64,000 nt of DNA from NCBI GenBank assembly GCA_035419245.1, contig DAOLSP010000001.1, positions 203,364-267,363 of the forward strand, written 5' to 3'. Source of the DNA: a bacterium. Lineage in GTDB: Bacteria > Zhuqueibacterota > Zhuqueibacteria > Residuimicrobiales > Residuimicrobiaceae. Shown one piece after another: positions 330-32,128 of the stretch (positions are counted from its first letter, which is position 1; every line of letters starts with the position of its first letter). The translations under genes and the position numbers were made by a program. The notes below the pieces were generated by a model. That model searched no databases and was not told the DNA's origin. It saw only the letters and a program-made list of their open reading frames with translations.

Positions 330-344
330 TCGGTATGATCGCAA

Positions 345-379
345 AAAGGCCTCCCGGATGTTCTGTCCGGGAGGCCTTT
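345..379. terminator. Bidirectional intrinsic terminator
   Basis: 14-bp stem aaaggcctcccgga / tccgggaggccttt with a 7-nt loop, between convergent genes. Confidence 0.85.
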
Positions 380-404: not shown

Positions 405-3400
405 TCATTTGACAAAGGCCATGCGCCGCAGCTCGGTATATCCCGCCGCTTCCATCCTAAGCAGGTAGATCCCACTCACGACTTCCTGGCCCGACTCATT
501 GCGACCGTCCCAAATCCGGCGATAACTCCCCGCCTCAAAACGCCCCTCGGCCAGGGTGCGCACCGGCTGACCCAGGATATTAAGGACAACCACCCGCGCC
601 GTCCCGCTCTTCGGCAGCGAGAACCGCACCTCGGTGCGCCCGTTGAACGGATTGGGATAGTTCTGTGCCAACGCATAGCGTGTGGGGAGTTCGCTGATGC
701 GAAGCTGTCCGGTCTCGGGGGCTTGCGCCAGGATCCAGCTTCCCGGGCTGCGGAGATCCAGATTCTCCACCTTCCAGTCGCAGAGGGCCCCGGCGGCGCC
801 GCGCTCCTCCACCACGATGCGAACCAAGGCACCGGCGCCGCTCACCTCGGCGGCGCGGTTCTTCTCTGCGAGGCGGGCCAGAGCCAGATCGATAATCCCG
901 CAGCGGGATTCATGGTCGACCATCAGCGCCGTGGTGGCCCCACCCGCCTCCCATAAGGCGCCGGCGGTGATGGCACCGACCCGCAATTGTTCGGGATTAT
1001 AGCGCAGCCGCAGATGGGCCATGGCCAGACCCGAGATCTCCGACGCGATTAATTCACAGAGGTACTGCCCGTCGGCGCCGGGGAGCGGTGAGACCTTCCA
1101 GGCCAGCGGTGTTGCCGTGCTCCGGGAGAGCGCGGCGACCGCAACCGGCCGGGACTGGTACCAGTTCCACATCCGGGTGAAGACGAAGAGATCCTCAAAA
1201 TTGACCACACCGTCGTGCATCACCGTGAGCGCGGGGACACTCCCCGAAGCCGGGCCGATATCGCCGGCAGCGGAGTTCGCCGGCTGCCAATAGCCGGCAA
1301 GCAGGGTGAAATCGCGCAGATCGATGTCGAGATCGCCGTCGAAATCGCCGATCAAACCCACGGCGGTGGCGGCCTGGATATGCGCACCGCTGCTGGCAAC
1401 CGGCAGGTCGGTATTGTCCGGCTGGCGGAGTTGTACGGAGTTCAGATTCAGATCGCTAGCGCAGTCTGCCGTCAGCACCTTGAAGCGAACGCTCAGAAGA
1501 GTGCCGCTGCCACTGGCGCCGGTGGCGGCGCCGACTCGGGTCATGGAGACGTCAACCAGGCCCACCCCGTCGTCGGTGACGATCAGGGTCGGATCCGCGG
1601 CCCCCCCCTGCTTCAAAAAGTCGCCCGCCGCCCAGCTGACCACATCGATTTTGGTCGCGTTGTAGGCGAGGACAAAATGGACCAAGCCGAGGTTAACCAG
1701 CCCGTCGACTGTGACGCTTATATCGAAGGAGGCATCTTTGATGCCAATCAAGGCGGCTGGCGCGAGGGCAATGCGGCTGGCGCCGACATAGTAGCGGCCG
1801 ATATCGTAGCCCCCTTTGCTGCTGCGCTCGGCTACCACCGCGACCTGGCGCCAGGTATTATCCGGCACCGGATTGCTGGTGGTGTAGGTGATGACATACT
1901 GCGAGGTCAGCAGGGCACCAATGGCATCGATGATGCCCGCAAAGTCGGCGCTGATGCTGTACCATAACCCGCTGGTTCGCTCGGCAAGGCTGTGGAAGGG
2001 CGCACCATTCGGCCCGACAACGTGGGTGACGATGCGTTGGCTCTGCAGCAGGGAGATCATTGTCTCGGTCGTATAGGTCGTGGTGCCGCCGCCAGACTCG
2101 CCAGCTTGGTGGTAATCGGCATCGGTGATCAACACCGCCATCTTTTGGCTGGTCGCGCGATAGGAGAGCTTGCTCGCGCGGGCCAGTGCTTCGAGGGCGT
2201 TCTCTTTGGTATCCCCGCCGCCGGAGGCACGCAATCCGTCGATCCACGCCTTGAATTCGGCGGCATCCGCAGTGAAGTCATGCACCTCCTCTGTGCTGTC
2301 GCTGAAGGTGACCAGGCCGAGCCGGAAATCGATCCCCTTGGCGGCCAGGGCGTCGGCGAAACTAAGGGCGCGCGACTTCAATCCGGCGATCTCGTCCCCC
2401 ATGCTGCCGGTGACATCAAAGACGAAGGCGATGTCCGCGCGGGCTCCTGAACCGGTGCTGACCATCTCCACCTTGATCGGGGATTGCAGCAGGCCCTCTT
2501 CCCTCACCTTGAAATTCTCCGCGGTGAGGTCGGTGACCGCGGTATGGCTCGCGGAATCAACGACCGAGACGAAGCTTTTGATCACGGGGAAGGCCTCGGC
2601 GTCGACGCTGCTGACGGTTACATCAAGCCCTGAGTAGGCGCCTGCGCCCTTACGGCCGAACATAAGGATGGTGCCGCCATCGCCGGCGATCCAGCCGGAA
2701 TAAGCGTTCAGGAGGCAGACGGCATTCAGCCCAACGCTCACGCCGCTGGCCTCGAGAATCCAGGTGCCACCGCCGTCATGTGTCCGGTAGATCCGGCCGC
2801 CCTGGCCGACCGCCACTCCATTGCCGGCGTCCGCAAAATCGACGGCATGGAGGGGCAAGGAGCTGACGCTGGTGCTGCTCCAGGTCACACCGCCGTTACG
2901 GGTGCGTAGTACCTTGCCATCGCCGGTAACCGCCCAGCCCTGGTTGGCGTCGATAAAAACCACGCCGCGGATGGCGCTGGTCACGCCGCTGTTCTGACTG
3001 CTCCAGACGGCGCCGCCGTTGACGGTCCTGAGAATGGCCCCCGCCTCACCGACGGCCCAGCCGGTGTCGGGGTTGACGAAGGTGATGTCATAAAAGGTTT
3101 GCCCAGCGGCGCTGTACTGGGAGGTCCAGGTGCTGCCGCCGTTGACCGTCTTCTCGATCAGGCCCTGACTGCCGGCATTCCAGCCGAGCGCACTGCTCAC
3201 CATCTCGTTGGCATAAAGCACCCCCGCAGCGCTGGTCGGTGAGGAGATCCAGGAATCGCCGCCGCTGTTGGTCTTCATGCAGAGCCCCGCCCCGGCGCTG
3301 CTCTGGCCAACCAGCCAGCCGGTGGCAGGGCCGACAAAGGCGAGATCCCGGATCACGCTCTTGGCGGTGATGGCCGCGCTGTTCCAGCTCGCGCCACCGT

Positions 3401-6400
3401 TGGCGGTGCGCACGATCACGCCGTTATCACCCGCAGCCAGGGCATGCAGGGAATCGGCAATAATCGCATAGAGGTTGCTGGTTGTGCCGGAGGAGGCCAC
3501 CACCCAGCCGCTGGTTCCAGAATAAAAGGGCCAGGTGTGTGCATAACCACGGGCGCTGGTGGAAGCCTCGGCCACCTGGCCGCTGCTGTTATAGGTGAAG
3601 GCGCTGTAATAATAAGTGGTTTCGGGTGTCAACCCGGCATCGATGCAGGTGCTGTCGACGCCGGTGTAAACGATTTCCCCGTCGGCGGGATCTGCCGGGC
3701 ATCCACCCATCCGGCGCAGCACTTTGACACCCTCATGCGCTTTACCGGGCGGGAATGACCAGCGGCAGTAGATTTTATTATAAGCGACCGCCACAGCGGT
3801 AAAGTCGCGCACATTGGGCAGCTTGCCGGCAATGTAATAGCGCCCGCTATCCCAGCCGCCCCGGATGCCGCGCGCCGCGGTGATGATGACATCGCGCCAG
3901 GTGTTATCACGTATCGGATTATGGGTTGTGTAGCTCACCACATACTGCGAGGAGAGGGCGACGCTCAACTTATCAATAATCGCCTGAAAATCGCCGTTGA
4001 TATCGAAATAGAGCCCGCCGGTCTCCGCAGCCATCTGCCGGAATTGAGGATAATCAGGTCCGACCACATTACACATGATGCGCTGGGATTGCAGCAGAGC
4101 GATCATGCTGGTGGTGGTATAGGTGGTGGTGCCGCCGCCGCTCTCTCCGGCCTGATGGTAATCGGCATCGGTAATGAGGATGAAAATGCGCTGGCTGACA
4201 GCTCGGAAACTGAGGGTTGTCGCGCTGGCCAGCCCTTCCAGCGAATTCTCCTTGGTATCACCTCCGCCCGAGGCGTACAGGCTGTTGATCCATCCCTTGA
4301 ATGTGGAGATCTCAGCCGTGAAATCGTTGATCTTGTCCACGGCATCGCCGTAGGTTACCAGAGCGAGACGGTAATCGATCCCCTTGGCAGCCAAGGCGTC
4401 CGCAAAGGCCGATGCCCGTTCCTTGAGGCCGTTGATCTCTTCGCCCATGCTCCCGGTGGTATCGAAGACAAAGACGATATCGGCCTTGGCGCCGGAGGTA
4501 CCGCTGACCGATTCCACCGTGATCGGGGACTCTTTGGTTCCATCCTCGCGCACGCCGAAATTCTCTTTCGTCAGCCCGGTGATGGGCTCCATGGTCGCGG
4601 AATCGACGACGGAGACGAAAGATTTGACCACCGGGAAAACGCTGGCATCCACGCTGCTGACGGTCACCTTGTACCCGTGCAACTCAAAGCCCTCGTCGGT
4701 TCTGACCAGAGCCCTCGAGGTCGCGCCGAGGGGCGAATAGCGTCCAGCGCTGTTATAGGCGAAGGCGGCGTAATAGTAGGTGGTATTGGCGGTGAGCAGA
4801 GAGTCCCTGCAAAAGCTTCGGGTGCCATTGTAAATGGTGACGCCATCGCTCACGCTTGCTGGATAGCCGGTTGCGCTGCGAACAATCACCGTACCGGCAT
4901 ATTCATCGCTAGGATTCTCCCAAGTGAGCCCGACGGTATTGGGGCCGGTAGCGCGGGCCGTCAGGTTGGTGATGCTGAATGGATAGCTCGCGCCCTGATG
5001 CAGCCGGAGAATGACCCCACCGGCGCCGACAGCCCAGCCGCACGCGGGATGAACGATGAAAAGGTCGTTGAGCGTGGAGCCCACGGTGCTGCTCTCTTCG
5101 CTCCAGCTCTCTCCGCCATCGTAGGTTTTAAAGATCAGACCGCCATCGCCGGCCGCATAGCCGTGCCAGGAGGAGGTGAAGTGGATGGCGCGCAGTGCAG
5201 CGCTGCTCACCTGAAGCGCGCTCCATGTAGACCCGCCGTTGGTGGTGTGGAGGATTTTGCCGTTTTCGCAGACCGCCCAGCCGAGATTCTCATCGGCGAA
5301 CCAAATGTCATTAATCCGGACATTAATCCCGCTGGTCATGAGCTGCCAGTTGGCGCCGCCATCGCCGGTGCGGAGAATGACGCCGTTATCGCCGGCGACG
5401 ATGCCCTTCTCGGCGTTGAGGAAGTAAACCGCGTAGAGCCCGGCCGCAAGACCCGTGAACTGCTGCGACCAGGTCGCCCCGCCGTCGGTCGTGGTCTCGA
5501 TCTTGCCCTCGTAGCCGCTCGCCCACCCGAGCGTGCCATTGACCATGTGCAGGCTGAAGAGGCGTGCGGTGGTGCTGCTCAGGACCCTGGACCAGGTGAG
5601 ACCGCCGTCGGTGCTCCGGAGAATGGCGGCATTCTGCTTGCTGTCATAGCCCACCGCCCATCCATTCAGGGCGGTGGTAAAGAAGAGATCTTTCAGTGTG
5701 TATTTGGCATCGACATTGCGCACACTCCAGGTCGCTCCGCCGTTTTTAGTGAAGAGCAGTGTGCCGCCTGCGCCGCCTGCCCAAGCGGTCAGGGTGTCGA
5801 GGGCATGGACGGTGTAAAGATCCTGGGTAAGGGGTGCATACTGGCGGCTCCAGGAGACATCGGTGATCACCCCGGGCTGAACCGAGATATAGTTGTCCTT
5901 TCTCACCGAGTAGTCCCGGCTGCCATCGCTGACCCGCAGGGTGACCGAATAGAGGCCCGGTTTGCCGTAGGTATGGACCGGATTTTGGAGGTTGGAATCG
6001 ATGAAGAGGTCCCCGTCAAAATCCCAGTTCCAGGAGATCACGCCGCCGCTGCCGAGGATCTCATGATCGGCTGGCACCTTGGCGCGCCGCGCTGCCAGAG
6101 CGGCCGCGGGGACAGCCGGCTGGATGAGATTGCGCACCGTAACCGCGCCGGTGGCGCCATCGATTTCGCAGACATACCAGAAGGTGCCGGTTCCGGAGGT
6201 AGGAATGGTGATGGTCTGCAACAGCCCCGCCGAGGTGTAGATCTGCACACGCGCGTTGGCGCCGCTGAGCGCCGGCAGCTCGGAAAAATTCTCGACAAAA
6301 CAACGGTAGGTGCCCGGTTGCAGCGCGCCGATGGTGATCGTCTCCGGTCCGTAACCTTCCTGGTGATCGACATCGAGCAAAACGTAGGGTGCGCTTTCGA

Positions 6401-7721
6401 GATTGCCCTTGTTATCCCAATAGATTTCATGACTCACGCCCTCGATCACCGGCGTGCGCAGATGCAGATCGAGGTCCTTGGGCTGGTTGCCCCAATTAAG
6501 GATCAGGCGCATCTCGCCGGGCTTGATGACCGGCGAGAGTGAGATCTCCAAGTATTTGTCCTCGCTCTCGCTGAAGGCGAGAATCGACTCGGTACCCATA
6601 TAGTCGGTGGCGGAGACAAAAAGGGTGTAGCTGCCGACGCTTGAGAGGTCAGTGAACTGCACCTGGAGCGGTGCTTTGCCGGCGAGGGGTTCGGCGCTGA
6701 AATTGGCGGCAATCACACTGGTGGGAATATCCGTGATGGTATAATCGCCGTGGGCATCGGTCACGGTGTTCCGGCCCGCCAGCCAGACCGCCGCTCCGGC
6801 GATGCCTTCCTTGGTGATCGCATCGGTCACACGCCCCCGGAGGGTGGCGTAGGTGCTGGCTTCAACCGGTTTGCCGACGGCAAGGGTGAGTCGGCCAGTC
6901 TGGAAACCCGGCGCCTCAGCTGTGATAACCGAGGTGCAGCCCGGCTCTCTCGCAGCGGCCGATATCTTGAACTCCTGTTCCCGGGTGCCGCGGCTGATCG
7001 TCACCACCTCAGGCACATGCAGGCAGCCCGGATCCGAGGAGGTCAGCGTGATCTTGACGTCGGCAGACGCCACTGTGGCCAGAGAGATTTTAGCCAGGGT
7101 GTAGGAACCCAGTGGCACAATGAGCGGAGCTGCGCTCAATACCAGCTGGGTATTTTCACCGGAGGTGATTTCGATGAGGGCGGGATAATCGGGGTGGTCG
7201 GTCTTGAAATAAAAGGTTACCGCGCTCCCTTTGAGCTCCGACCAGTCGCCCGACCATGCAGGCGGCGCCACCGCCCAGTGCCAGTCGCCCGTACCCCAGT
7301 CGCTGACCTGCAGATATCCGCCCGGTCGGCCGCCGTAGGATTTCCATTCCAGCGTGCCGTCCCCCGAAGCACTCCACTCCTCCGTTCCCGAGCTGAAGCT
7401 GGCCGAATACCGCGAGCCGACGCGGATGCTGTCGATGCCGGCGATATCCTTGGCATCGCTCATTTCGGTGCGAATGCGGAAGGTCTGGACATTGGACAGG
7501 ACACGATCGAAGAGGCTGTCGGAGACCTTGAAAGTGCCCGCGGTGAGCGGAATCGAATAGGGCTGCCACTCGCTGTCCAGCGGCGGGCCGAAAGAGGTCC
7601 GCAAGGTATCCGGCGCCGCGGTGACGGCGATGCGGTTGGTTGCGGCCTGGGACAGGCCGGCAGCCAATAGGAGTAGGATTGTGATCAGTCCGATGACCGG
7701 TCTTGCACTCTTGTTCTTCAT
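405..7721 (-). CDS. Giant secreted multidomain surface protein (laminin-B-like, Ig, YfaP-like, PKD, 2x YCF48-type beta-propeller, 2x FN3-like, 2x VWA, cohesin-dockerin-cohesin, FlgD-Ig/T9SS-like CTD)
   Basis: 2438 aa with a signal peptide. Motifs: SxDGGxTW repeats; VWA MIDAS-like DTTGS and DVTGS; YfaP-like WGNQPKDLDLH...DVD..GYGPETI; PKD WNWDFDGD; dockerin GDFDGDLDIDLRDF...DGVVNFEDLF; C-terminal LAQNYPNPFN...WDGRNESGQEVVSGIYLLRM. Confidence 0.9.
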   Translation of the reverse strand: MKNKSARPVIGLITILLLLAAGLSQAATNRIAVTAAPDTLRTSFGPPLDSEWQPYSIPLTAGTFKVSDSLFDRVLSNVQTFRIRTEMSDAKDIAGIDSIRVGSRYSASFSSGTEEWSASGDGTLEWKSYGGRPGGYLQVSDWGTGDWHWAVAPPAWSGDWSELKGSAVTFYFKTDHPDYPALIEITSGENTQLVLSAAPLIVPLGSYTLAKISLATVASADVKITLTSSDPGCLHVPEVVTISRGTREQEFKISAAAREPGCTSVITAEAPGFQTGRLTLAVGKPVEASTYATLRGRVTDAITKEGIAGAAVWLAGRNTVTDAHGDYTITDIPTSVIAANFSAEPLAGKAPLQVQFTDLSSVGSYTLFVSATDYMGTESILAFSESEDKYLEISLSPVIKPGEMRLILNWGNQPKDLDLHLRTPVIEGVSHEIYWDNKGNLESAPYVLLDVDHQEGYGPETITIGALQPGTYRCFVENFSELPALSGANARVQIYTSAGLLQTITIPTSGTGTFWYVCEIDGATGAVTVRNLIQPAVPAAALAARRAKVPADHEILGSGGVISWNWDFDGDLFIDSNLQNPVHTYGKPGLYSVTLRVSDGSRDYSVRKDNYISVQPGVITDVSWSRQYAPLTQDLYTVHALDTLTAWAGGAGGTLLFTKNGGATWSVRNVDAKYTLKDLFFTTALNGWAVGYDSKQNAAILRSTDGGLTWSRVLSSTTARLFSLHMVNGTLGWASGYEGKIETTTDGGATWSQQFTGLAAGLYAVYFLNAEKGIVAGDNGVILRTGDGGANWQLMTSGINVRINDIWFADENLGWAVCENGKILHTTNGGSTWSALQVSSAALRAIHFTSSWHGYAAGDGGLIFKTYDGGESWSEESSTVGSTLNDLFIVHPACGWAVGAGGVILRLHQGASYPFSITNLTARATGPNTVGLTWENPSDEYAGTVIVRSATGYPASVSDGVTIYNGTRSFCRDSLLTANTTYYYAAFAYNSAGRYSPLGATSRALVRTDEGFELHGYKVTVSSVDASVFPVVKSFVSVVDSATMEPITGLTKENFGVREDGTKESPITVESVSGTSGAKADIVFVFDTTGSMGEEINGLKERASAFADALAAKGIDYRLALVTYGDAVDKINDFTAEISTFKGWINSLYASGGGDTKENSLEGLASATTLSFRAVSQRIFILITDADYHQAGESGGGTTTYTTTSMIALLQSQRIMCNVVGPDYPQFRQMAAETGGLYFDINGDFQAIIDKLSVALSSQYVVSYTTHNPIRDNTWRDVIITAARGIRGGWDSGRYYIAGKLPNVRDFTAVAVAYNKIYCRWSFPPGKAHEGVKVLRRMGGCPADPADGEIVYTGVDSTCIDAGLTPETTYYYSAFTYNSSGQVAEASTSARGYAHTWPFYSGTSGWVVASSGTTSNLYAIIADSLHALAAGDNGVIVRTANGGASWNSAAITAKSVIRDLAFVGPATGWLVGQSSAGAGLCMKTNSGGDSWISSPTSAAGVLYANEMVSSALGWNAGSQGLIEKTVNGGSTWTSQYSAAGQTFYDITFVNPDTGWAVGEAGAILRTVNGGAVWSSQNSGVTSAIRGVVFIDANQGWAVTGDGKVLRTRNGGVTWSSTSVSSLPLHAVDFADAGNGVAVGQGGRIYRTHDGGGTWILEASGVSVGLNAVCLLNAYSGWIAGDGGTILMFGRKGAGAYSGLDVTVSSVDAEAFPVIKSFVSVVDSASHTAVTDLTAENFKVREEGLLQSPIKVEMVSTGSGARADIAFVFDVTGSMGDEIAGLKSRALSFADALAAKGIDFRLGLVTFSDSTEEVHDFTADAAEFKAWIDGLRASGGGDTKENALEALARASKLSYRATSQKMAVLITDADYHQAGESGGGTTTYTTETMISLLQSQRIVTHVVGPNGAPFHSLAERTSGLWYSISADFAGIIDAIGALLTSQYVITYTTSNPVPDNTWRQVAVVAERSSKGGYDIGRYYVGASRIALAPAALIGIKDASFDISVTVDGLVNLGLVHFVLAYNATKIDVVSWAAGDFLKQGGAADPTLIVTDDGVGLVDVSMTRVGAATGASGSGTLLSVRFKVLTADCASDLNLNSVQLRQPDNTDLPVASSGAHIQAATAVGLIGDFDGDLDIDLRDFTLLAGYWQPANSAAGDIGPASGSVPALTVMHDGVVNFEDLFVFTRMWNWYQSRPVAVAALSRSTATPLAWKVSPLPGADGQYLCELIASEISGLAMAHLRLRYNPEQLRVGAITAGALWEAGGATTALMVDHESRCGIIDLALARLAEKNRAAEVSGAGALVRIVVEERGAAGALCDWKVENLDLRSPGSWILAQAPETGQLRISELPTRYALAQNYPNPFNGRTEVRFSLPKSGTARVVVLNILGQPVRTLAEGRFEAGSYRRIWDGRNESGQEVVSGIYLLRMEAAGYTELRRMAFVK

Positions 7722-7817
7722 ATGCGACTCTTTAGTTTTGATGACGAATGATCCTGGATATCGCCGGAGAACAACCCCTCCACCCCGGCCCTTCTGCCGA
7801 TCTCTGTTGAGAAGTAG

Positions 7818-8645
7818 CTACTGAATCACAATATGGCTGCCCAGCGCCACGGCTTGCATGGGATTGGCACGCTTGTCATACAAACCCAGATCCGTCCCCT
7901 TCAGGTTGAGGTCTATATCAGCTGTCGAAGTCGCGGTCGCTTTGAAAAGGATGCGGGCGATCTTGCCCTCACCGCTCACCGATTTGCCCGCAGGGAAGAT
8001 GCCCAGTTGCAAGATCACCTCGCCCGCAGTGTTGTCCTTGCTGAACTGCAACTGCGTGACCGCCCCGCCGTTCTTTTTAAGAAAATCGTCCTCGCGACCG
8101 AGCTCGACCACCTGCAGCTTGGCAGGGTCGAATTTCAATTTGGTACCGATCGTGCACAGGCTGTCCACATGATGGGCTTTGACATAGACCGTGAGGGTGC
8201 TGTTCACGGCCAGGGTGGTATCGATGGGGGTCAAGGTGAGGGCTGGCACCTGAAACTGCAGGGTCAGACGGAGCGCCGTTTTTTGCCCGGCCTTCAGGTC
8301 GAGGCTGTCTTTTCCGGTCAGAACCAGCAGGGTATCCTGGAAAGCTGACACCTGGAAGAGCCGGTTCTTGCCAGGCGTGACCTTGAGCGTGGTCTGGAAC
8401 CGCCCCTCTGCTGCAGCCGAAACGGTGGTATCCAGCGTCATGGTCTTCATCCCCGTTCCCGAGACGGTGATGACCAGCCGGCTGATCCCCGTCTTGAGCA
8501 CGGCGGCTTTGGAGAGCGAGAAGGTTGCCGTGACGCGGGCATCATCCGCGTTCTCCGGCTCGGTCGAGAGGGGCTGGCTGCAGGCAGCCAGTAGCGCCAG
8601 CAGGCCAGCGGCATACAGGCGGTATATTTTTTTAAGGGCAACCAT
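7818..8645 (-). CDS. Lipoprotein with C-terminal cohesin domain
   Basis: Lipobox LLAAC; SD aggag; the C-terminal half shows a cohesin pattern (LTVYVKAHHVDSLCTIGTKLKFDPAKLQVV...VSGEGKIARILFKA...LGLYD). Confidence 0.8.
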   Translation of the reverse strand: MVALKKIYRLYAAGLLALLAACSQPLSTEPENADDARVTATFSLSKAAVLKTGISRLVITVSGTGMKTMTLDTTVSAAAEGRFQTTLKVTPGKNRLFQVSAFQDTLLVLTGKDSLDLKAGQKTALRLTLQFQVPALTLTPIDTTLAVNSTLTVYVKAHHVDSLCTIGTKLKFDPAKLQVVELGREDDFLKKNGGAVTQLQFSKDNTAGEVILQLGIFPAGKSVSGEGKIARILFKATATSTADIDLNLKGTDLGLYDKRANPMQAVALGSHIVIQ

Positions 8646-8735
8646 GGAATGACTCCTATGAATAGAAGGCTTTCACCAGCGTTGCAACTCCATCCGGGCA
8701 GCAGATCCCGGGATTGGGGCCTGGCCCGGCGCACT

Positions 8736-9563
8736 TCACCAGCCGATGGTGACGCCGACCACGGCCTTTTTGGGTGCAGTATCGTCACTCCCGCTGGCGA
8801 GCATATAGATGATCCCGCCGCCGATTGCGGCTGTGGTGATCCAGAATGCCGGCTTGGCATAGAGGGATTTAGAAGTTCCTTTCGCGGCCGGACGGACGGC
8901 TGTTGCCTCTTTACCGCGGGTCAACGGGGTCGGTCCGCTGCGCCGTTCCTGCAATCGTGCAATCTCTTCATCGGTGAGCAGCCGGATGGGGATCTGATCG
9001 GTTTTGGCTTCATTGCCAAAATCATCGGTCGCGGTGATCTGGTAGGACAAACGTCCTCCGGCGGTGAGCTGCACCGGCAGGGTGATCCGGTAGGCCGCGC
9101 CGGACTCGACAATCTGGACCGCATCGGCCGGAATGTACCCCACCAGACCCGCCGCGCTGCGAATGCGGTAATAGGGTGGGTGCACCAGAGTGACCTCGAG
9201 CAGTTCACCCGGGGCAAGCTGCCCCAGAAGTTTGCCGTTGCCGCTAGGCGTTGCATAAAGCGCCACTGCTTCGGTACCGGTTTGCACCACCACCGGCACG
9301 CTCGAGGCGCTCTGTACCGGATTCATTTCGTGCTGGATCTGTTGCCCGTCATGCTGGACGGTGATGCGCACGCTCTTGACGCCGGAGTTATCGCTTACAT
9401 TGGCGAGAATGGGCAAGATTTTGCCGACCCGGCCGAGACGGACCGGCTGATGGGCGATTTTGGGCGGCGTGGTATCAAAGACTTGCGCCCCGGCCGCCAA
9501 CGGCAGTATCAGCAGCGCGAAAAACCAGCGCCATTTTGTTTCAGAGTTTAGCAGGTGTTCCAT
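8736..9563 (-). CDS. Exported protein: Ig-like domain with inserted SH3b domain, C-terminal hydrophobic anchor
   Basis: Signal peptide; DTTPPKIAHQP...SDNSGVKSV Ig start; SH3b-like LYATPSGNGKLLGQL..GELLEV...YYRI...GYI; C-terminal AFWITTAAIGGGIIYMLA segment. Confidence 0.7.
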   Translation of the reverse strand: MEHLLNSETKWRWFFALLILPLAAGAQVFDTTPPKIAHQPVRLGRVGKILPILANVSDNSGVKSVRITVQHDGQQIQHEMNPVQSASSVPVVVQTGTEAVALYATPSGNGKLLGQLAPGELLEVTLVHPPYYRIRSAAGLVGYIPADAVQIVESGAAYRITLPVQLTAGGRLSYQITATDDFGNEAKTDQIPIRLLTDEEIARLQERRSGPTPLTRGKEATAVRPAAKGTSKSLYAKPAFWITTAAIGGGIIYMLASGSDDTAPKKAVVGVTIGW

Positions 9564-9605
9564 CGTATGACATTCTCCCTGGATTGGGCGAATAGTTTAA
9601 AATAT

Positions 9606-9628
9606 TTATTATATTGATGATATAATAA
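9606..9628. promoter_or_regulatory. Perfect 9-5-9 AT-rich inverted repeat, candidate operator upstream of the surface-protein locus
   Basis: TTATTATAT-TGATG-ATATAATAA, 43-65 nt upstream of the SH3 gene start. Confidence 0.5.
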
Positions 9629-9718
9629 TTGGAAGATGGCCCGGTCCTTTCCCCTTGCAGAAAGGCAAATTCCAGTCCACGATTACAGAAGTGTCCCAAT
9701 GCGCGGCAAATTTATGCA

Positions 9719-9750
9719 TAAAAAAGCCCGGCTTCATACGAAACACGGGC
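9719..9750 (-). terminator. Intrinsic terminator downstream of greA
   Basis: Minus strand gcccg(t)gtttc-gtat-gaagc-cgggc followed by TTTTTT. Confidence 0.7.
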
Positions 9751-9887
9751 GGTTCGTCGCGAAAAGCGTCTGGCAACGTATGAAAGAGAATGGATGCAAA
9801 GCCCGATGCTGTACGTTCAAGAACAAAAACCGGATTCTCGGGATCCCCGTTCCAGACCGGACTACGGTGGTACCCCTGGTTGCTCGC

Positions 9888-10358
9888 TTATGAAATCTTT
9901 TTAACGCGATAGGTGATCTCCCCTGCAGGCACACGGATCGAGACAATATCGTCCACACCCTTGCCGACCAAAGCCTTGCCAACCGGTGAATCGATGGAGA
10001 TGGCATCTAGATCATAGGAATGGAATTCTGCGGTCGGCACCAGCTCGTAGACCGTCTCCTCCTCGGTTTTAAGATCGACCAGCAGCACGCGGCTGCCCAC
10101 ATGAACCTGCTCGGTCCCCATCATCTCTTCGCTCAATATCCGCGCCCGCGAAAGGGTCTCCTCCAGCCGGGCGATCTTGCGCTCGATCAGCAGCTGCTTC
10201 TCCTTGGCGGCATCATATTCGGCATTCTCGCTCAGATCGCCCTTTTCGCGCGCCTCGGCAATCTCCTTGATCACCTTGGTGCGTTCGTTGCGCTTGAGAT
10301 GATGCAATTCAGTCTGTAATTTGTTCAACTGCTCTTTGGTCAGGTACAGGGGTTTCAT
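9888..10358 (-). CDS. greA: Transcription elongation factor GreA
   Basis: IAEAREKGDLSENAEYDAAKE motif and ISIDSPVGKAL C-terminal motif. The ATG at 10358 has GAGG 7 nt upstream (alternative GTG at 10361). Confidence 0.97.
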   Translation of the reverse strand: MKPLYLTKEQLNKLQTELHHLKRNERTKVIKEIAEAREKGDLSENAEYDAAKEKQLLIERKIARLEETLSRARILSEEMMGTEQVHVGSRVLLVDLKTEEETVYELVPTAEFHSYDLDAISIDSPVGKALVGKGVDDIVSIRVPAGEITYRVKKIS

Positions 10359-10421
10359 CACCAGGCCTCTTCACTCTCTTTGCACGGTTCAATGGATATG
10401 TCGGGAGACGGATCCAAGCGG

Positions 10422-10470
10422 AATAAAAACGCAAACCGAACCGGCGTTAGGACACCGATTCGGTTTGCGT
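10422..10470 (-). terminator. Intrinsic terminator in the greA 5' leader (attenuator)
   Basis: Minus strand 18-bp stem acgcaaaccgaatcggtg / cgccggttcggtttgcgt (2 G-U pairs), 6-nt loop, then TTTTTATT. Confidence 0.8.
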
Positions 10471-10476
10471 GTTGTT

Positions 10477-10505
10477 AAACTAATAATAAATACGCAATTT
10501 GTCAA
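10477..10505 (-). promoter_or_regulatory. Sigma70-type promoter of greA
   Basis: TTGACA (10505-10500), 17 nt, TAGTTT (10482-10477). Confidence 0.7.
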
Positions 10506-10553
10506 GAAAAATTTAAAGAATTCCCTACCGGCGCAAGCGCGAAAACAAATTCC

Positions 10554-10582
10554 TTGGCTTTTTAGCCCGCTTGTACTAAATT
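10554..10582 (+). promoter_or_regulatory. Candidate sigma70 promoter for asparaginase-pepD
   Basis: TTGGCT, 17 nt, TAAATT. Confidence 0.4.
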
Positions 10583-10612
10583 GAATAACGGATCACCAGA
10601 AAGAAGGCCTCC

Positions 10613-11137
10613 ATGCCCGCAAAAAAAGTCAAGATCTACGTCATCACCACCGGCGGCACCATCGAAAAGATCTACGACGAAGAGAGCGGCACCCTGACCA
10701 ACCGCGGCTCACTCCTGCAGCAGATGCTCGCCCGGCTACGTCTGCCCTATACCACCATCCAAAGCTACGATCTGCTCTGCAAAGACTCGCTGGAGATGAC
10801 CGACAAGGACCGGCAGATGATCCTGCTCGCCGTCGAGAATCTCCTGGAGCATGATGCCCCCATTCTCATCCTCCATGGCACCGACACCATGGAAAAGACA
10901 GCGGAGTATCTCCATCACAATCTTGCCGGATTGCGGGTGCCTATCGTCCTGACCGGGGCGATGAAGCCTTTCGGCTTTGAAAACTCCGACGCCCTGCAGA
11001 ACTTTACCGAAGCCCTGCTGGCCTGCTCCCTGGTTGCACCCGGGGTCTACATCAGCATGCATGGACGTATCCATCCCTTGCCCGGGGTGTTCAAAAACCG
11101 TGAAAAAGGCACCTTTGAAAAACGAGAATCCATCTAA
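10613..11137 (+). CDS. Short-chain L-asparaginase (N-terminal catalytic domain only)
   Basis: TTGGTI and HGTDTM catalytic motifs and VLTGAM; only 174 aa. Confidence 0.85.
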   Translation: MPAKKVKIYVITTGGTIEKIYDEESGTLTNRGSLLQQMLARLRLPYTTIQSYDLLCKDSLEMTDKDRQMILLAVENLLEHDAPILILHGTDTMEKTAEYLHHNLAGLRVPIVLTGAMKPFGFENSDALQNFTEALLACSLVAPGVYISMHGRIHPLPGVFKNREKGTFEKRESI

Positions 11138-16505: not shown

Positions 16506-16869
16506 GGGGACGAATATGGTTTCGACGGGAATCATGACGGTAGTGGACGCATGCCGAGGACCCCGGTTGGCCTCGTTAATCATCCGGGACAATAAGTAGA
16601 TGCAGACGATTATTCGTATGCACTGGCTGCCTAATTAAAGGTGGCCACGTTCCCTATGGTTTGCGCCCGCAGGGGCTGTAGAGGAGCGTCGATCACTGCA
16701 GGATAGCCTCCGGGCATGCTCTGGGCCCCGAGGCGAACCTTAACAGGGCTGGACCGCATCCGCTTGGTCTGTTGCGCGTGGTGCGGTCGAGATCCAGCAG
16801 CAGACTATGCATGTAGTGGCTGCTACGGCCGGGTTTTCGGACGTGGGTTCGACTCCCACCGTCTCCACC
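16506..16869 (+). ncRNA. ssrA: tmRNA; tag peptide (A)ADDYSYALAA*
   Basis: 5' GGGGACGAATATGGTTTCGAC. 3' T-arm GTGGGTTCGACTCCCAC and CGTCTCC-A-CC pairing with GGGGACG including the G3-U pair. Pk1-like ccgagg...cctcg. Tag ORF 16602-16634 ends in ALAA-TAA. Confidence 0.95.
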
Positions 16870-16871
16870 TC

Positions 16872-26316: not shown

Positions 26317-27276
26317 TTACTTGACCAGCAGCATCTTTTTAACATCGTGGAACGAGCCCATGGTGATGCTGTAGACATAGACCCCGGAAGGCAGGGCGTG
26401 CGCATCAAAGGTGACCCGATGCACGCCCGCCGTCTTTTTCTCATTGACCAGAGTCCGCACCTCACGGCCGAGCAGATCAAAAACCTTGAGGGTGACCATC
26501 CCCTCCTGCTTGACCCGGAAGACGATCTCGGTCTGGGGATTGAAAGGATTGGGGAAATTCTGCGTCAATTCATAGCGCTGCGGGGCTGTGACTTCCACCT
26601 CACGCACATCGGAGTAGGTGAAGGCGCCGTTGCGGTCGATTTGCCGCAGGCGGTAAAAATAGGTGCCCACCTCAACCTTGCTGTCGGTGAAACCGTAACT
26701 CTGCGCGAGATTGGTGGAGCCAGCGCCGGCGACGAAGCCCAGCCGGGTAAAGGATTTACCATCCAGACTGCGTTCGACGTCGAAGCCGAGATTGTTGCTT
26801 TCGCCTACGGTATGCCACTCCAGCAGGACCACATCACTGAGGGAGGTGTTCTTCACCGCGGCGGTGAAGGTAGTGAGCTCGACGGGCAGCGAGACACTGC
26901 CAACAATCTCATAGGGATCCTCCGTGGTGACATAGGAGATCGATTTGGCAGCGCCGTAAAAGGGGCTGGTCGTCAAAACGTTTTCGAACTTGACCACCAG
27001 GGTATCCCCGGCCTGCCAGTTGGCATAAGAAATCATCGGGGTTTGCTTGAGTTCAACACTCCATCCACCCCCCGTGGCGCAGTAATTGGCCTGACTGGTA
27101 TCGCCCGGCGATTTGGTCAGAAAGGCCTGAAACCTGATCTCGCCGGCGGCGGGCACCGAGCCGTCCGGATTGAGGAATTTTCCACCCACGATATGGGGCA
27201 TCATATCACCCTGCGCGTACAAGGTGCCGATCTGACCCAACGCAAACAAGGCCAGCGCGAAATATTTGAGTCTCAT
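26317..27276 (-). CDS. Secreted protein with Ig-like domain and T9SS-like/FlgD-Ig C-terminal sorting domain
   Basis: Signal peptide; LPVELTTFTA...LEWHT..ESNNLGFDVERS Ig motif; QNFPNPFNP...SGVYVY...KKMLLVK. Confidence 0.88.
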   Translation of the reverse strand: MRLKYFALALFALGQIGTLYAQGDMMPHIVGGKFLNPDGSVPAAGEIRFQAFLTKSPGDTSQANYCATGGGWSVELKQTPMISYANWQAGDTLVVKFENVLTTSPFYGAAKSISYVTTEDPYEIVGSVSLPVELTTFTAAVKNTSLSDVVLLEWHTVGESNNLGFDVERSLDGKSFTRLGFVAGAGSTNLAQSYGFTDSKVEVGTYFYRLRQIDRNGAFTYSDVREVEVTAPQRYELTQNFPNPFNPQTEIVFRVKQEGMVTLKVFDLLGREVRTLVNEKKTAGVHRVTFDAHALPSGVYVYSITMGSFHDVKKMLLVK

Positions 27277-27291
27277 GACGATCCCTCCTGA

Positions 27292-30200
27292 TTAACGAGT
27301 ATATGTGGGCCAGACGGCTGGCGCGGTCTTGTTGACCTGGATCAGAACCGGATCACCCGGGGCGACACTGAACGGGGTCATCGGATTGCCGAAGTTGAGC
27401 GACGGCAGCCAGTACTGGCTGAATCCGCGGCCGTCGGCGCCGACCTTGAGCAGCACTTCCACACCACCGATCTCGGCAGCCAACTGACTGGCGTTGGTGA
27501 TCTCCGGCCGGTCTAACGGCACGATGATTTCGTTGTAGGTGTACTTGGCCGTCGTGCTCAACCTGAACTGAAGCTCGCCGGGGTTCGGCACTGCGCCGCA
27601 ATAGAACCACTTCTCCGGGGCGGTATCATCCGCCTGAATCAGGACCGGCATGCCGCTGTGGAGGGCGAAGGGCGTCGCCGGGAAATTCAGATCCGGCAAA
27701 TAATAGGTGCTGTAGCCGTTGGTTGCCGGGTTGATCTGCAGCACCACCTTGACGCCGGAGCCGATGGCCTCGGCGAGATCCTTGGCATTGCGGATCGGGC
27801 TCTCCAGCGGCAAGGAGAGATAATTATAGCGCGGTTTGGCTGCGCGGACTAGTGCAAAGCCATATTTGCCGACGCGGCGGGAAAGCGCGGAGTAGTTGTC
27901 GCTGTCGACGGCGCGGACGACATAATATTGACGCAGCGTTTCACTGTTGACCATCAGCGTAGTGTCCGAGGTGGCTGCCAGCAGCGTGCCTTCCACATCC
28001 GGGTCGAAATAGGGTTTGGAGTCATGCACATAGACGCGGTATCTGATGGTGCCGGTGCGTTCGAGCGAGCCATTGACACCGCGGGTCACCGGATTCCAAT
28101 GCAGATTGACGGCGGCGCCCTTCTTATCCGCAGCCAGCCGTGCCGGGGCCATCGGCGCAATGTTGTCTATCGCCCGGCCGCTGCCCATGGCAGCGCCGGA
28201 AACCACCGAACCGCCCATGGTGCCGAGCACCGAGGTGACCGGGTTCGAGCCCTCCTGGCTGTGAATGAGCAGGGGAACCGCCCCCGCCGTAGTCTGCGGC
28301 AAGGCGGCCAGCGTCGCGCCACCGCCCTTGACCGCAGCAGCCGGAGGCACCCAGACCGCCCGCACATAAAAAGCCATCGTGTCGCTGCTGACAACCGGCA
28401 GATCGACCGCCATGACCGTCGAGCCTGTGCCGGAGGGATTGTAAGCGGCGATTTGCTGCGGCCAGTAGTGGAGCGTATCCTCGCCGTTGATCGTGTAAAA
28501 GATCTCGTAATAGTTAATCACCGGCGTGGCGCCCATGCCCTGATGGTTGGCCGAGAACGGCCACTTCAGGGTAATCCAGCCGCCCTGATCGCCCGGCACA
28601 TCCTGCACCGTCAAATAATCCGGCTGATCGATGATCGGATCGATCACCGTGATCGCGCTCGAAGAGGCGGAATCCAGAGGATAAATATCCGTGCCGATCG
28701 AAACAGAGAGGATGAGGTTGTTGGTGCTCACCCAGCTGGTGAAGCGGAAGACGCCGATGCCTTCGGTCAGCTTCTTGGGACCGCTGGGCATGACGATCTC
28801 GCTCGACTGGAGATTGCTCGAGAAGGTCAAATAGCCGGCGAAATTCTTGTCGATCACACCATACTTGTCGCGAGCGATCACCTGCACATCAAAGGGGACG
28901 CCACGGACCTGGGCGCCGGCGACTACCGGCTGGATCACAAAAGAGCAGGCGGCGTTGCTCGTCACAGCGACCCAGCTGGTCTGGGTATTGCTGTTCGAGA
29001 CCGGCGTCACCAGATCTTCCTCGACCCCCGGTGCATCGTAGCGGAGGATGCCCTCGGCCTTGGGATCCCAACCCAGGGAAGAACTATAGGAGAAAGTGTT
29101 GAGCAGGACCTTGCCCGGGGAGACCTCCCGCGCATCGCTAATGGGCCAGGCGCCGACGTAATTGGCTCTGGGGGCCATGTTGAGATAGAAATCGGTGCTG
29201 TAGACCGACCAGTCGGCCAGATCCTCGCTCATAAATACCTCGACGTCAAAGCGGCTGATCGTCTTGGCGCTCATGATGGCCGGACCGGCATTGTCTTTTT
29301 CAGCCGTCAGGCCCACCGGGAGCGGGGCCATGGGGTTGTCCGCCCAGTCGGTGAAGCCGTTATTGGCTGTAACCACCACATCCGGCACATCACCGGTATC
29401 GCCACCATAGGGTGTCAAGGCCGGTCCGCTGCCAGTGGTTTCATCAAATTGGATATAGGCCGCAACCGTATCCCCATAAGTGTTGATAGCCGCAGGCTGG
29501 TAATAGGCATAGCCCGGATTGTAGACATTGAGGTCCACCACCAGGTTTTTCTTCAGGCCATCATAACCCGTGATGGTCCAGTTGGCCGGCCTGAAGGAGC
29601 GCTTGGGATAGATCGGCGAGAGATCATCATAGATGAAGCGGTAGTGATCGATCTTGCCATCGGCATCCAAGTCCACCGTCGCCAGGCTGAGGAGGATCGG
29701 CGGAATGTTGTCGCGTTCAACCTTGACATCCGAACCCAGCAACGTCCGGGTGGTGCCGCTGAGGCTCAGCTCGTTGTCATATTGCATGTTGCCGTTGGGC
29801 GTAACGGCCAGATCGTTGACCAGCGATTGCGCCCTGAAGTTGATGGCGCCGCTGTCGTTTTTGGTCCAAGCCAGCCCGGTATGATTGAGATAGACGATGC
29901 TGTCGGTGCGCGCCGGGGACATGCCAGTGAAATAGATCTGAATCCCGGAGACGTCATAGTTGGAGAGGCCCACGAACCACTTGAAAAGAGGCGAAGGCAT
30001 GCCGGGCGTTGGACTGATCGGCCAGCTGGCCGTGTTGACCTTCTCGCTGAAGACCAGGCGGATGCGCTTGGTCCCAGCCGTCAAGGCGCGGATGATCGCG
30101 GGGCCGGCGGTATCGAGAATCTGCACCACCTGCGCGTTGTTCGCCGAAAGGGCGATATCCGAGCTGTAAAGGGCTTCCACCAAGCCGTTGTTGACCGGCT

Positions 30201-31827: not shown

Positions 31828-32128
31828 TTTCGCCTCCATTTGGTTCTTCGTTGATGACGGAGTTGCGCCGCTACCGGTTTTGCAGCCCGAAAACCGGGGG
31901 CGCAAAGCAGCCATAGTAGTATACTCTGCGGGCCTCATCGCAAATTCAATGCCATAGATAAATGCAACCTTTTTTTCGCTTATGGATTGAGATCGTCGTC
32001 ACAAAGTGCTATCGCGCCCAGAGCACGCCCTTTGTTATTAATGTAATTAGCCCTTTTCCAATTCTGCGGTCAACACCATCATTTTTGACGATTTATAGCT
32101 ATTACTGACAGAGTCTATCCCCGTTCCG

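Follow-up and report, generated by a model that had tools for sequence, protein, structure and literature searches.

A lipoprotein cohesin genetically linked to a dockerin-bearing type IX secretion adhesin: a candidate enzyme-free anchoring cassette of KSB1 bacteria

Few protein-protein bonds are known to be as strong as those of cohesin-dockerin pairs; to our knowledge, work to characterise them has dealt almost wholly with the cellulosomes of Gram-positive bacteria, and we are aware of many non-cellulosomal occurrences that have no assigned partner. The question hence arises what such modules do in a 64,000-nucleotide (nt) stretch from an uncultured bacterium that probably belongs to candidate phylum KSB1, for which we know of no cultured member (contig DAOLSP010000001.1 of assembly GCA_035419245.1, positions 203,364 to 267,363; hereafter the window). 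Here, three consecutive genes encode an SH3/immunoglobulin-like (Ig-like) envelope protein, a lipoprotein with a cohesin, and a secreted protein of 2438 residues, referred to as the giant, that carries a dockerin-like module between two cohesins and ends in a C-terminal sorting domain (CTD) of the type IX secretion system (T9SS). From our point of view, the lipid-anchored cohesin could represent a cell-bound receptor for the dockerin of the adjacent adhesin and hence its cargo-specific anchor, a proposal drawn by analogy to cellulosomes that we regard as evenly balanced between right and wrong. We classify the cassette as a candidate new form of cohesin-dockerin anchoring that would operate without enzymes, in which the plug-and-socket of the cellulosome seems to be reused to hold an adhesin on the cell.

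A sequence-only reading of the window had described three co-oriented genes on the minus strand, and all three open reading frames (ORFs) are present exactly where it placed them; its domain coordinates proved right to about 50 nt. The genes and their modules are as follows.

8736..9563, minus strand: gene 1, SH3/Ig envelope protein, 275 aa (ORF)
8739..8849, minus strand: C-terminal anchor of the SH3 protein (alignment of 28 homologs)
7818..8645, minus strand: gene 2, lipoprotein, 275 aa (ORF)
7824..8243, minus strand: cohesin domain of the lipoprotein (Pfam and AlphaFold2/Foldseek)
405..7721, minus strand: gene 3, secreted adhesin-like giant, 2438 aa (ORF)
2001..2435, minus strand: second VWA domain of the giant, aa 1763-1907, directly before the first cohesin (PF00092, 84 bits)
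1377..1730, minus strand: first cohesin of the giant (Coh1), aa 1998-2115 (PF00963, AlphaFold2, Foldseek)
1155..1358, minus strand: dockerin-like module, aa 2122-2189 (hhalign, loop pattern)
690..1109, minus strand: second, cohesin-like domain (Coh2), aa 2205-2344 (fold level)
408..686, minus strand: T9SS type A CTD, aa 2346-2438, with the motif QNYPNPFN (TIGR04183, FlgD_ig)
343..377, minus strand: hairpin of an intrinsic terminator, 3' of the giant gene (seen in the sequence itself)

The lipoprotein starts with a signal peptide that ends in the lipobox LAAC (Cys22), followed by an Ig-like beta-sandwich (aa 36-126) and the cohesin (aa 135-274). Cys22 is invariant in 17 homologs, and homologs from other loci likewise have a Cys where the hydrophobic region ends. 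PF00963 matches the cohesin with 33.0 bits at aa 143-267 (cut-off 24.1), the AlphaFold2 model (predicted local distance difference test, pLDDT, 79) consists of an N-terminal Ig-like sandwich and a subsequent cohesin-like domain, and the top Foldseek matches of this model in the PDB are all cohesins (target template modelling score, TM, 0.75-0.79; E down to 4.5e-10), which bears out the earlier description of a LAAC lipoprotein with a cohesin as its C-terminal half. Behind the lipobox Cys, Asp and Glu are enriched (20% vs 10.6%), most strongly in the class of short lipoproteins described below. Such an acidic stretch recalls the export signal of surface lipoproteins in Bacteroidota and can be taken, as a lead only, for a weak hint that the lipoprotein may be exported to the cell surface. 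Homologs are few, namely 17 clusters in one search and, in another, 22 representatives at E <=1e-30 among 1.84 billion proteins.

The C-terminus of the giant has the order VWA-cohesin-dockerin-cohesin-T9SS type A CTD. Family-profile searches of PDB sequences gave only marginal cohesin and dockerin matches, so that folds had to be compared. The last 464 aa were modelled with AlphaFold2, from an alignment of 9 sequences, to see if the dockerin would dock on one of its neighbouring cohesins. Coh1 is recognised by PF00963 with 28.4-32.8 bits at aa 1998-2105 (cut-off 24.1), and its model (pLDDT about 80) finds cohesins in Foldseek at a target TM of 0.8. Coh2 forms a beta-sandwich in the model (pLDDT 58-86) and shows weak PDB sequence matches to cohesins (E 0.015); because Pfam gave no match, its identification as a cohesin, by alignment to the type II cohesin dyad 3l8q (ScaA), is put forward at the fold level only. 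This dyad is also the best Foldseek match of the whole C-terminal module (E 3e-12), and the Archaeoglobus fulgidus cohesin 2xdh ranks among the top structural matches for the models of both the lipoprotein and the giant module. The CTD scores 27.4 bits with TIGR04183 (cut-off 23) and 35 bits with FlgD_ig (cut-off 27) at a pLDDT of about 90, and remains below the cut-off of 27 with Pfam Por_Secre_tail (16.8-19.4 bits). As expected of type A cargo, the CTD occupies the extreme C-terminus and an N-terminal signal peptide can be read from the sequence.

The dockerin-like module follows Coh1 after a linker of about 5 residues. Its loop 1, DFDGDLDIDLRD, is a canonical EF-hand-like DxDxDxDxDxxD in which all six ligand positions are invariant Asp. 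Loop 2, GD-IGPASGSVPALTVMH-DGVVNFED, keeps positions 5, 9 and 12 and is broken by a conserved insertion of about 12 residues (IGPAxGxxPxL), with about 15 residues between the candidate position-1 Asp and position 5. The module terminates in the invariant aromatic helix FVFTRMWNWY (LFVFTRMWNWY here). A profile of eight family sequences aligned by hhalign to canonical dockerins, taken from other Coh-Doc-CTD proteins (cohesin, dockerin and CTD on one chain), gave a probability of 93.5% and E 2.2e-7 across both repeats, and 10 of its 17 weak PDB sequence matches are dockerins. These comparisons, together with the invariant Asp residues of loop 1, support homology to dockerins; the segment is nevertheless the weakest element of the cassette. 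Of the cohesin/two-EF-hand dockerin/cohesin/CTD end proposed at the outset, Coh1 and the CTD are thus found above the family cut-offs and Coh2 at the fold level, whereas the dockerin is recognised by profile-profile comparison only, and the term two-EF-hand is overstated because loop 2 is interrupted by the insertion. The two cohesins that pass Pfam, in the lipoprotein and in Coh1, also have models that match solved cohesins (TM 0.75-0.80), in keeping with the nine-stranded jelly-roll beta-sandwich of the cohesin fold.

What the module would hold is a large non-enzymatic protein. Pfam and NCBIfam place a CarboxypepD_reg domain, a PKD domain, two BNR/Ycf48-type propellers, an fn3 domain and two VWA domains between the signal peptide and the C-terminal module, in agreement with the adhesin-like VWA and beta-propeller cargo suggested before. 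Both VWA domains contain DxTGS motifs resembling a metal ion-dependent adhesion site (MIDAS), and TIGR03436 matches with 141 bits at aa 1717-1966. Neither Pfam nor NCBIfam reported a catalytic family above cut-off in the giant, glycoside hydrolases included; NF045728, which NCBIfam describes as a glycosylhydrolase, reaches 55 bits on the first propeller against a cut-off of 175. The absence of cellulase domains, already noted from the sequence, extends to five other family members, as glycoside hydrolases, carbohydrate esterases, polysaccharide lyases, peptidases and carbohydrate-binding modules above threshold were found neither in these nor in the giant. From its VWA/MIDAS, beta-propeller, PKD and fn3 domains, the giant is most likely read as a non-enzymatic, integrin-like adhesin. 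A further conserved module of the giant at about 6115..6520 (minus strand, aa ~400-535; LILNWG..DLDLHL..GYGPETITI..GTYRCFV..), for which the Pfam scan reported no family, occurs in two copies in the giant of a distant homologous locus (L001). It recalls YfaP/DUF2135-type domains.

The genetic linkage of lipoprotein and dockerin was followed through 57 related loci overall, mostly from KSB1 with additional ones from Zixibacteria, Calditrichaeota and Marinimicrobia. A dockerin-profile scan with one genome per species yielded 48 loci (most from KSB1, some from Zixibacteria, Calditrichaeota and Neomarinimicrobiota), whose six-frame ORFs were searched with hidden Markov models (HMMs) for the cassette genes. 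In about 36 of them, which are all that include the 5' flank apart from L047 and L050, a lipoprotein homolog lies directly upstream of the dockerin gene, and in 6 of 6 usable loci retrieved via the lipoprotein a dockerin gene follows it, so that the synteny of the two genes is seen from both sides. On all contigs examined around lipoprotein homologs the order is SH3 gene, lipoprotein, giant. L001, with a homolog of 38% identity, lies in another genomic neighbourhood and keeps the pairing, its giant combining FG-GAP and PKD cargo with the same VWA-Coh-Doc-Coh-CTD end. Where a genome holds two systems, each dockerin protein has a lipoprotein of its own (L015 with L019; L022 with L052), and a genome-wide dockerin count, which covers this dockerin type only, gave 1-2 per genome among the species representatives. 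In one subclass, a short lipoprotein of about 190 aa that lacks the Ig stalk is paired with a cargo protein of about 1130 aa, and there is no SH3 gene. Since no cohesin lipoprotein was found in the neighbourhood of L063 and L064, two Coh-Doc-CTD proteins with canonical dockerins, the pairing is specific to the cassette family.

Two further observations concern the collection of loci itself. Four Marinimicrobia-like proteins (L050, L051, L053 and P0030) contain the same unusual dockerin (37-41% identity) and, behind it, a beta-sandwich and a CTD; they have neither Coh1 nor a neighbouring lipoprotein, and their cargo consists of long tandem repeats. Several cassette-bearing records of metagenome-assembled genomes, among them L006, L011, L013 and L017, are titled 'uncultured Cytophagia bacterium' and L010 'Actinomycetota bacterium'; they look mislabelled or mis-binned, as their cassettes and flanks match KSB1 genomes.

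Across the family, cargo is exchanged in a modular fashion: the proteins range from 1117 to 3309 aa and differ in their N-terminal domains, the C-terminal module is constant, and a VWA domain lies N-terminal to Coh1 in all members examined (the giant, the five others and L001). Conservation, expressed as mean pairwise identity over 38 complete systems, is 66.5% for the dockerin, 43% for the CTD, 41% for the lipoprotein cohesin, 34% for Coh1, and 26% each for Coh2 and the lipoprotein stalk. By this measure the dockerin is the element under the strongest constraint, and the lipoprotein cohesin, at 41% vs 34% and 26%, is the best conserved of its three candidate partners.

As the window encodes LptD, AcrB, TolC-like proteins and SurA, the organism is a diderm, and an anchoring mechanism can be imagined as follows. 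Sec would carry the giant across the inner membrane and type IX secretion, via the type A CTD, across the outer membrane, while the lipoprotein would reside in the outer membrane and present its single cohesin on the Ig-like stalk. This cohesin would then capture the dockerin of the adhesin in the manner of an anchoring scaffoldin of the cellulosome, with the lipid anchor in the place of S-layer homology (SLH) repeats, and after export, probably after removal of the CTD, the adhesin would be held on the cell by a cohesin-dockerin bond that presumably depends on Ca2+. Being placed right before the dockerin, Coh1 may have the part that the X-module plays in type II X-dockerin dyads; in another variant, the internal cohesins might take the dockerins of further copies and thereby give rise to chains.

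The first gene adds a possible accessory. The SH3 protein comprises a signal peptide, an Ig-like domain, an SH3b domain (SH3_3, 25.8 bits at aa 99-149, slightly below the cut-off of 27), a second Ig-like domain, a linker and a C-terminal anchor; signal peptide and hydrophobic C-terminus agree with the anchored SH3/Ig protein named in the sequence-only reading. The anchor is made up of a hydrophobic, GGG-containing segment (aa 239-258), a polar stretch and an alternating strand (aa 267-275) that ends in Trp, and 28 homologs share the pattern KKPxFW, about 16 hydrophobic residues with a central GGG, a polar stretch, and KK-x-V-x-V-x-V-x-W(E/N). Judged from this pattern, the C-terminus may be a transmembrane helix or an outer-membrane beta element, and both readings stand; the final Trp-ended strand looks less like a cytoplasmic tail than like an outer-membrane beta-signal. 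The gene lies upstream of the lipoprotein gene in 28 loci, and in the search made its homologs were confined to lipoprotein-bearing contigs. The SH3b/Ig protein is a cassette-specific accessory and possibly provides a link to the cell wall.

Several points weigh against an anchor of this kind. The two cohesins beside the dockerin on the giant make binding in cis or between copies a simple alternative, and the mirror-tree test did not separate the candidate partners, as distances of the dockerin correlate with those of the lipoprotein cohesin at r 0.80 and with those of Coh1 at r 0.81; these are among the reasons why we hold the proposal no higher than evenly balanced. The dockerin lies below every curated cut-off (PF00404, 17 bits on the isolated segment, E 0.007, vs 22.9; NF041540, 16.5 bits vs 29), and AlphaFold2, working from the 9-sequence alignment, left it unfolded with two helices and a pLDDT below 50. 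None of the T9SS machinery proteins SprA/Sov, PorK, PorL, PorM, PorN, PorU and PorV is encoded in the window. T9SS type A cargo in Bacteroidota is attached covalently to anionic lipopolysaccharide (A-LPS), so that a second anchor is not obviously needed. Lastly, two loci weaken a strict one-to-one relation of lipoprotein and dockerin. At L047, a shortened dockerin protein of 1184 aa (7382..10936) occupies the GreA-adjacent ancestral site and the SH3 and lipoprotein genes are lost; the same genome (KSB1 metagenome-assembled genome Zod_Metabat.28) retains a full cassette elsewhere, at L014, and either one lipoprotein is shared in trans or the L047 copy is decaying. At L050 (1245..10253), a divergent protein of 3002 aa ends in Doc-Coh2-CTD and has neither Coh1 nor an adjacent lipoprotein.

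It could be that the dockerin folds back onto a flanking cohesin of its own chain and makes the CTD-proximal module a rigid clasp or stalk, with another ligand or role for the lipoprotein cohesin. Cohesin and dockerin on one T9SS-CTD chain are indeed widespread in uncultured diderms, many matches combining PF00963, PF00404 and PF13860 (e.g., P0091, P0129, P0137 and P0026); L050 keeps the dockerin, Coh2 and CTD in the absence of Coh1 and a neighbouring lipoprotein, and the equal correlation of dockerin and Coh1 distances fits as well. Identities of 34% and 26% for Coh1 and Coh2 beside 66.5% for the dockerin are, however, not what one would expect of a partner that the dockerin must bind within its own chain, AlphaFold2 placed the dockerin on neither cohesin with confidence (with the low pLDDT and shallow alignment given above), and the strict one-to-one linkage with a cohesin lipoprotein would stay unexplained, which makes this arrangement unlikely in our view. 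The lipoprotein-less dockerin-cohesin-CTD proteins of L050 and L047 lend some support to binding in cis or head to tail. In the latter case, the dockerin would engage Coh1 or Coh2 of the next adhesin to form chains or a lattice, and the lipoprotein would be a mere membrane primer or uninvolved. Self-interacting proteins with both cohesin and dockerin are known from A. fulgidus, the source of the close structural match 2xdh. Each chain carries two cohesins for its one dockerin, and cohesin-dockerin adhesins have been proposed to form aggregates of anaerobic methanotrophic archaea (ANME) and sulfate-reducing bacteria (SRB) (PMC10553843). Against this stands that Coh2 is not recognised by Pfam and shows the lowest conservation of the domains, and we judge a homotypic polymer rather unlikely.

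The two upstream genes could also serve the giant before its export, in that a periplasm-facing lipoprotein and the anchored SH3 protein hold or pilot it to the T9SS as cargo-specific accessories. Both genes are cassette-specific and precede the cargo gene, a membrane-anchored envelope protein is predicted for the SH3 gene, and the logic would be that of the PorP/SprF-like partners of type B CTD cargo. We nevertheless consider such an escort quite improbable, given that cohesin-dockerin pairs are known as extracellular assembly modules, that the short-lipoprotein class does without an SH3 gene, and that the acidic stretch behind the lipobox hints at surface export. The presence of cohesin and dockerin modules might finally suggest an ordinary enzyme complex of the cellulosome type, and cellulosome-like complexes built on CTD-anchored scaffoldins have been proposed in Cloacimonadota (PMC8542988). 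Here, the giant and its five relatives lack the enzymes and binding modules named above, the cassette has no multi-cohesin scaffoldin but a single-cohesin lipoprotein, and there is one dockerin protein per lipoprotein. Because both enzymes and scaffoldin are missing, the cassette is not a cellulosome, and we assign this explanation the very slightest probability.

Returning to the lipoprotein as anchor, the closest parallel is found in the type II anchoring of the Clostridium thermocellum cellulosome, in which the X-Doc of CipA binds SdbA, Orf2p or OlpB. In both cases a cell-bound cohesin holds, or would hold, a large secreted dockerin protein, a beta-sandwich module immediately precedes the dockerin, and the anchor is a different chain from the cargo; the structural matches of the cassette moreover include type II cohesins such as the ScaA dyad 3l8q. 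In contrast to C. thermocellum, the host of the cassette is a diderm, the anchor is a lipoprotein and not an SLH protein, the cargo is a T9SS adhesin and not an enzyme scaffold, the dockerin is internal, placed between two cohesins ahead of the CTD and marked by the insertion in loop 2, and the genes for anchor and cargo are adjacent and paired one to one. Non-cellulosomal cohesin-dockerin proteins, some with both modules in one polypeptide, were reportedly compiled in a 2009 survey by Peer and colleagues, as cited in PMC8542988. The cassette shares with them, as with A. fulgidus and its cohesin 2xdh, a top match for both models, the use of these modules outside cellulose degradation; whereas those examples are isolated and have no defined anchor partner, the cassette is a conserved operon with a dedicated lipoprotein and a T9SS signal.

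A different likeness is offered by type B CTD cargo such as SprB, which has neighbouring cargo-specific PorP/SprF-like partners. Here too, a giant T9SS adhesin is encoded beside small dedicated envelope proteins thought to be needed for surface attachment. In the cassette, however, a cohesin lipoprotein takes the place of the PorP-like beta-barrel as partner, the CTD belongs to type A (TIGR04183), and the predicted contact is cohesin-dockerin and not CTD-barrel. Among uncultured diderm lineages, proteins with cohesin, dockerin and T9SS CTD have been inferred in Cloacimonadota, where the scaffoldin is thought to be CTD-anchored and dockerins reside on enzymes (PMC8542988), and cohesin/dockerin adhesins with proposed roles in adhesion and aggregation in Seep-SRB and ANME (PMC10553843). 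These systems resemble the cassette in that cohesin, dockerin and CTD are combined, surface attachment or adhesion is proposed, and one of them belongs to the FCB (Fibrobacterota-Chlorobiota-Bacteroidota) group; they have been described without a lipoprotein cohesin partner, a fixed Coh-Doc-Coh-CTD module or a gene-pair linkage. Cohesin-dockerin display on the Gram-negative outer membrane has been engineered in E. coli (Ko et al., 2021, PMC9705933; reviewed in PMC12484212), and a 2025 review of cellulosomes mentions Gram-negative display solely as engineering (PMC12484212). There, too, the pair holds a passenger on the outer membrane; that display is synthetic, and the cassette would be its natural counterpart. 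Our literature searches on natural lipoprotein cohesins returned engineered systems only, those on KSB1 and T9SS returned no papers, and none of the literature found describes a lipoprotein cohesin partner or the three-gene cassette.

What would be new, then, is a natural outer-membrane lipoprotein cohesin that holds a T9SS adhesin as its cargo-specific, non-covalent anchor, by a route other than A-LPS, with a receptor gene for each adhesin and a Coh-Doc-Coh-CTD module reused for interchangeable cargo in KSB1 and neighbouring candidate phyla. We advance this wider claim tentatively, a little short of an even judgement. The cassette provides a genetically linked candidate cohesin/dockerin pair in diderms, turns a vague annotation into a testable binding hypothesis and informs on the surface biology of KSB1. 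If the proposal is true, it shows how T9SS lineages outside Bacteroidota retain giant adhesins on the cell, gives engineered Gram-negative surface display a natural counterpart, and adds, for protein engineering, a new orthogonal cohesin-dockerin pair in which the second Ca2+ loop is unusual.

With respect to expression, the SH3 gene and the lipoprotein gene are separated by 90 nt and the latter and the giant gene by 96 nt, and a gap of 324 nt lies on the upstream side of the cassette between the SH3 gene and greA (9888..10361). Immediately 3' of the giant gene stands the strong terminator hairpin AGGCCTCCCGGA-cagaaca-TCCGGGAGGCCT, followed by TTTT, which a consensus terminator scan of the window did not include in its list. 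A scan for sigma-70 promoters gave none above chance, the consensus being ill-suited to promoters of the FCB group. We infer that the three genes form one operon. Related KSB1 loci share the flanking order MacB-HlyD-M20 peptidase-asparaginase-GreA, which helps to place the organism within KSB1 or beside it.

The remaining genes of the window serve housekeeping and envelope functions (Suf, MacB/HlyD/TolC, AcrB, LptD, SurA, glutamine synthetase, transfer-messenger RNA (tmRNA)). A second protein with a T9SS CTD (319 aa, 26317..27276, minus strand; Por_Secre_tail, 36.7 bits) suggests that the T9SS is in use in the host. Its ORF directly follows, and is in frame with, that of a 1548-aa Big_5 protein (27292..31938, minus strand); an in-frame split of one cargo gene at 27292 was considered and rejected, since a start codon and a signal peptide mark the small ORF as a gene of its own, and these are two genes. 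The tmRNA gene lies at 16506..16870 on the plus strand (ARAGORN; Rfam RF00023, 201 bits) and encodes the tag peptide ADDYSYALAA.

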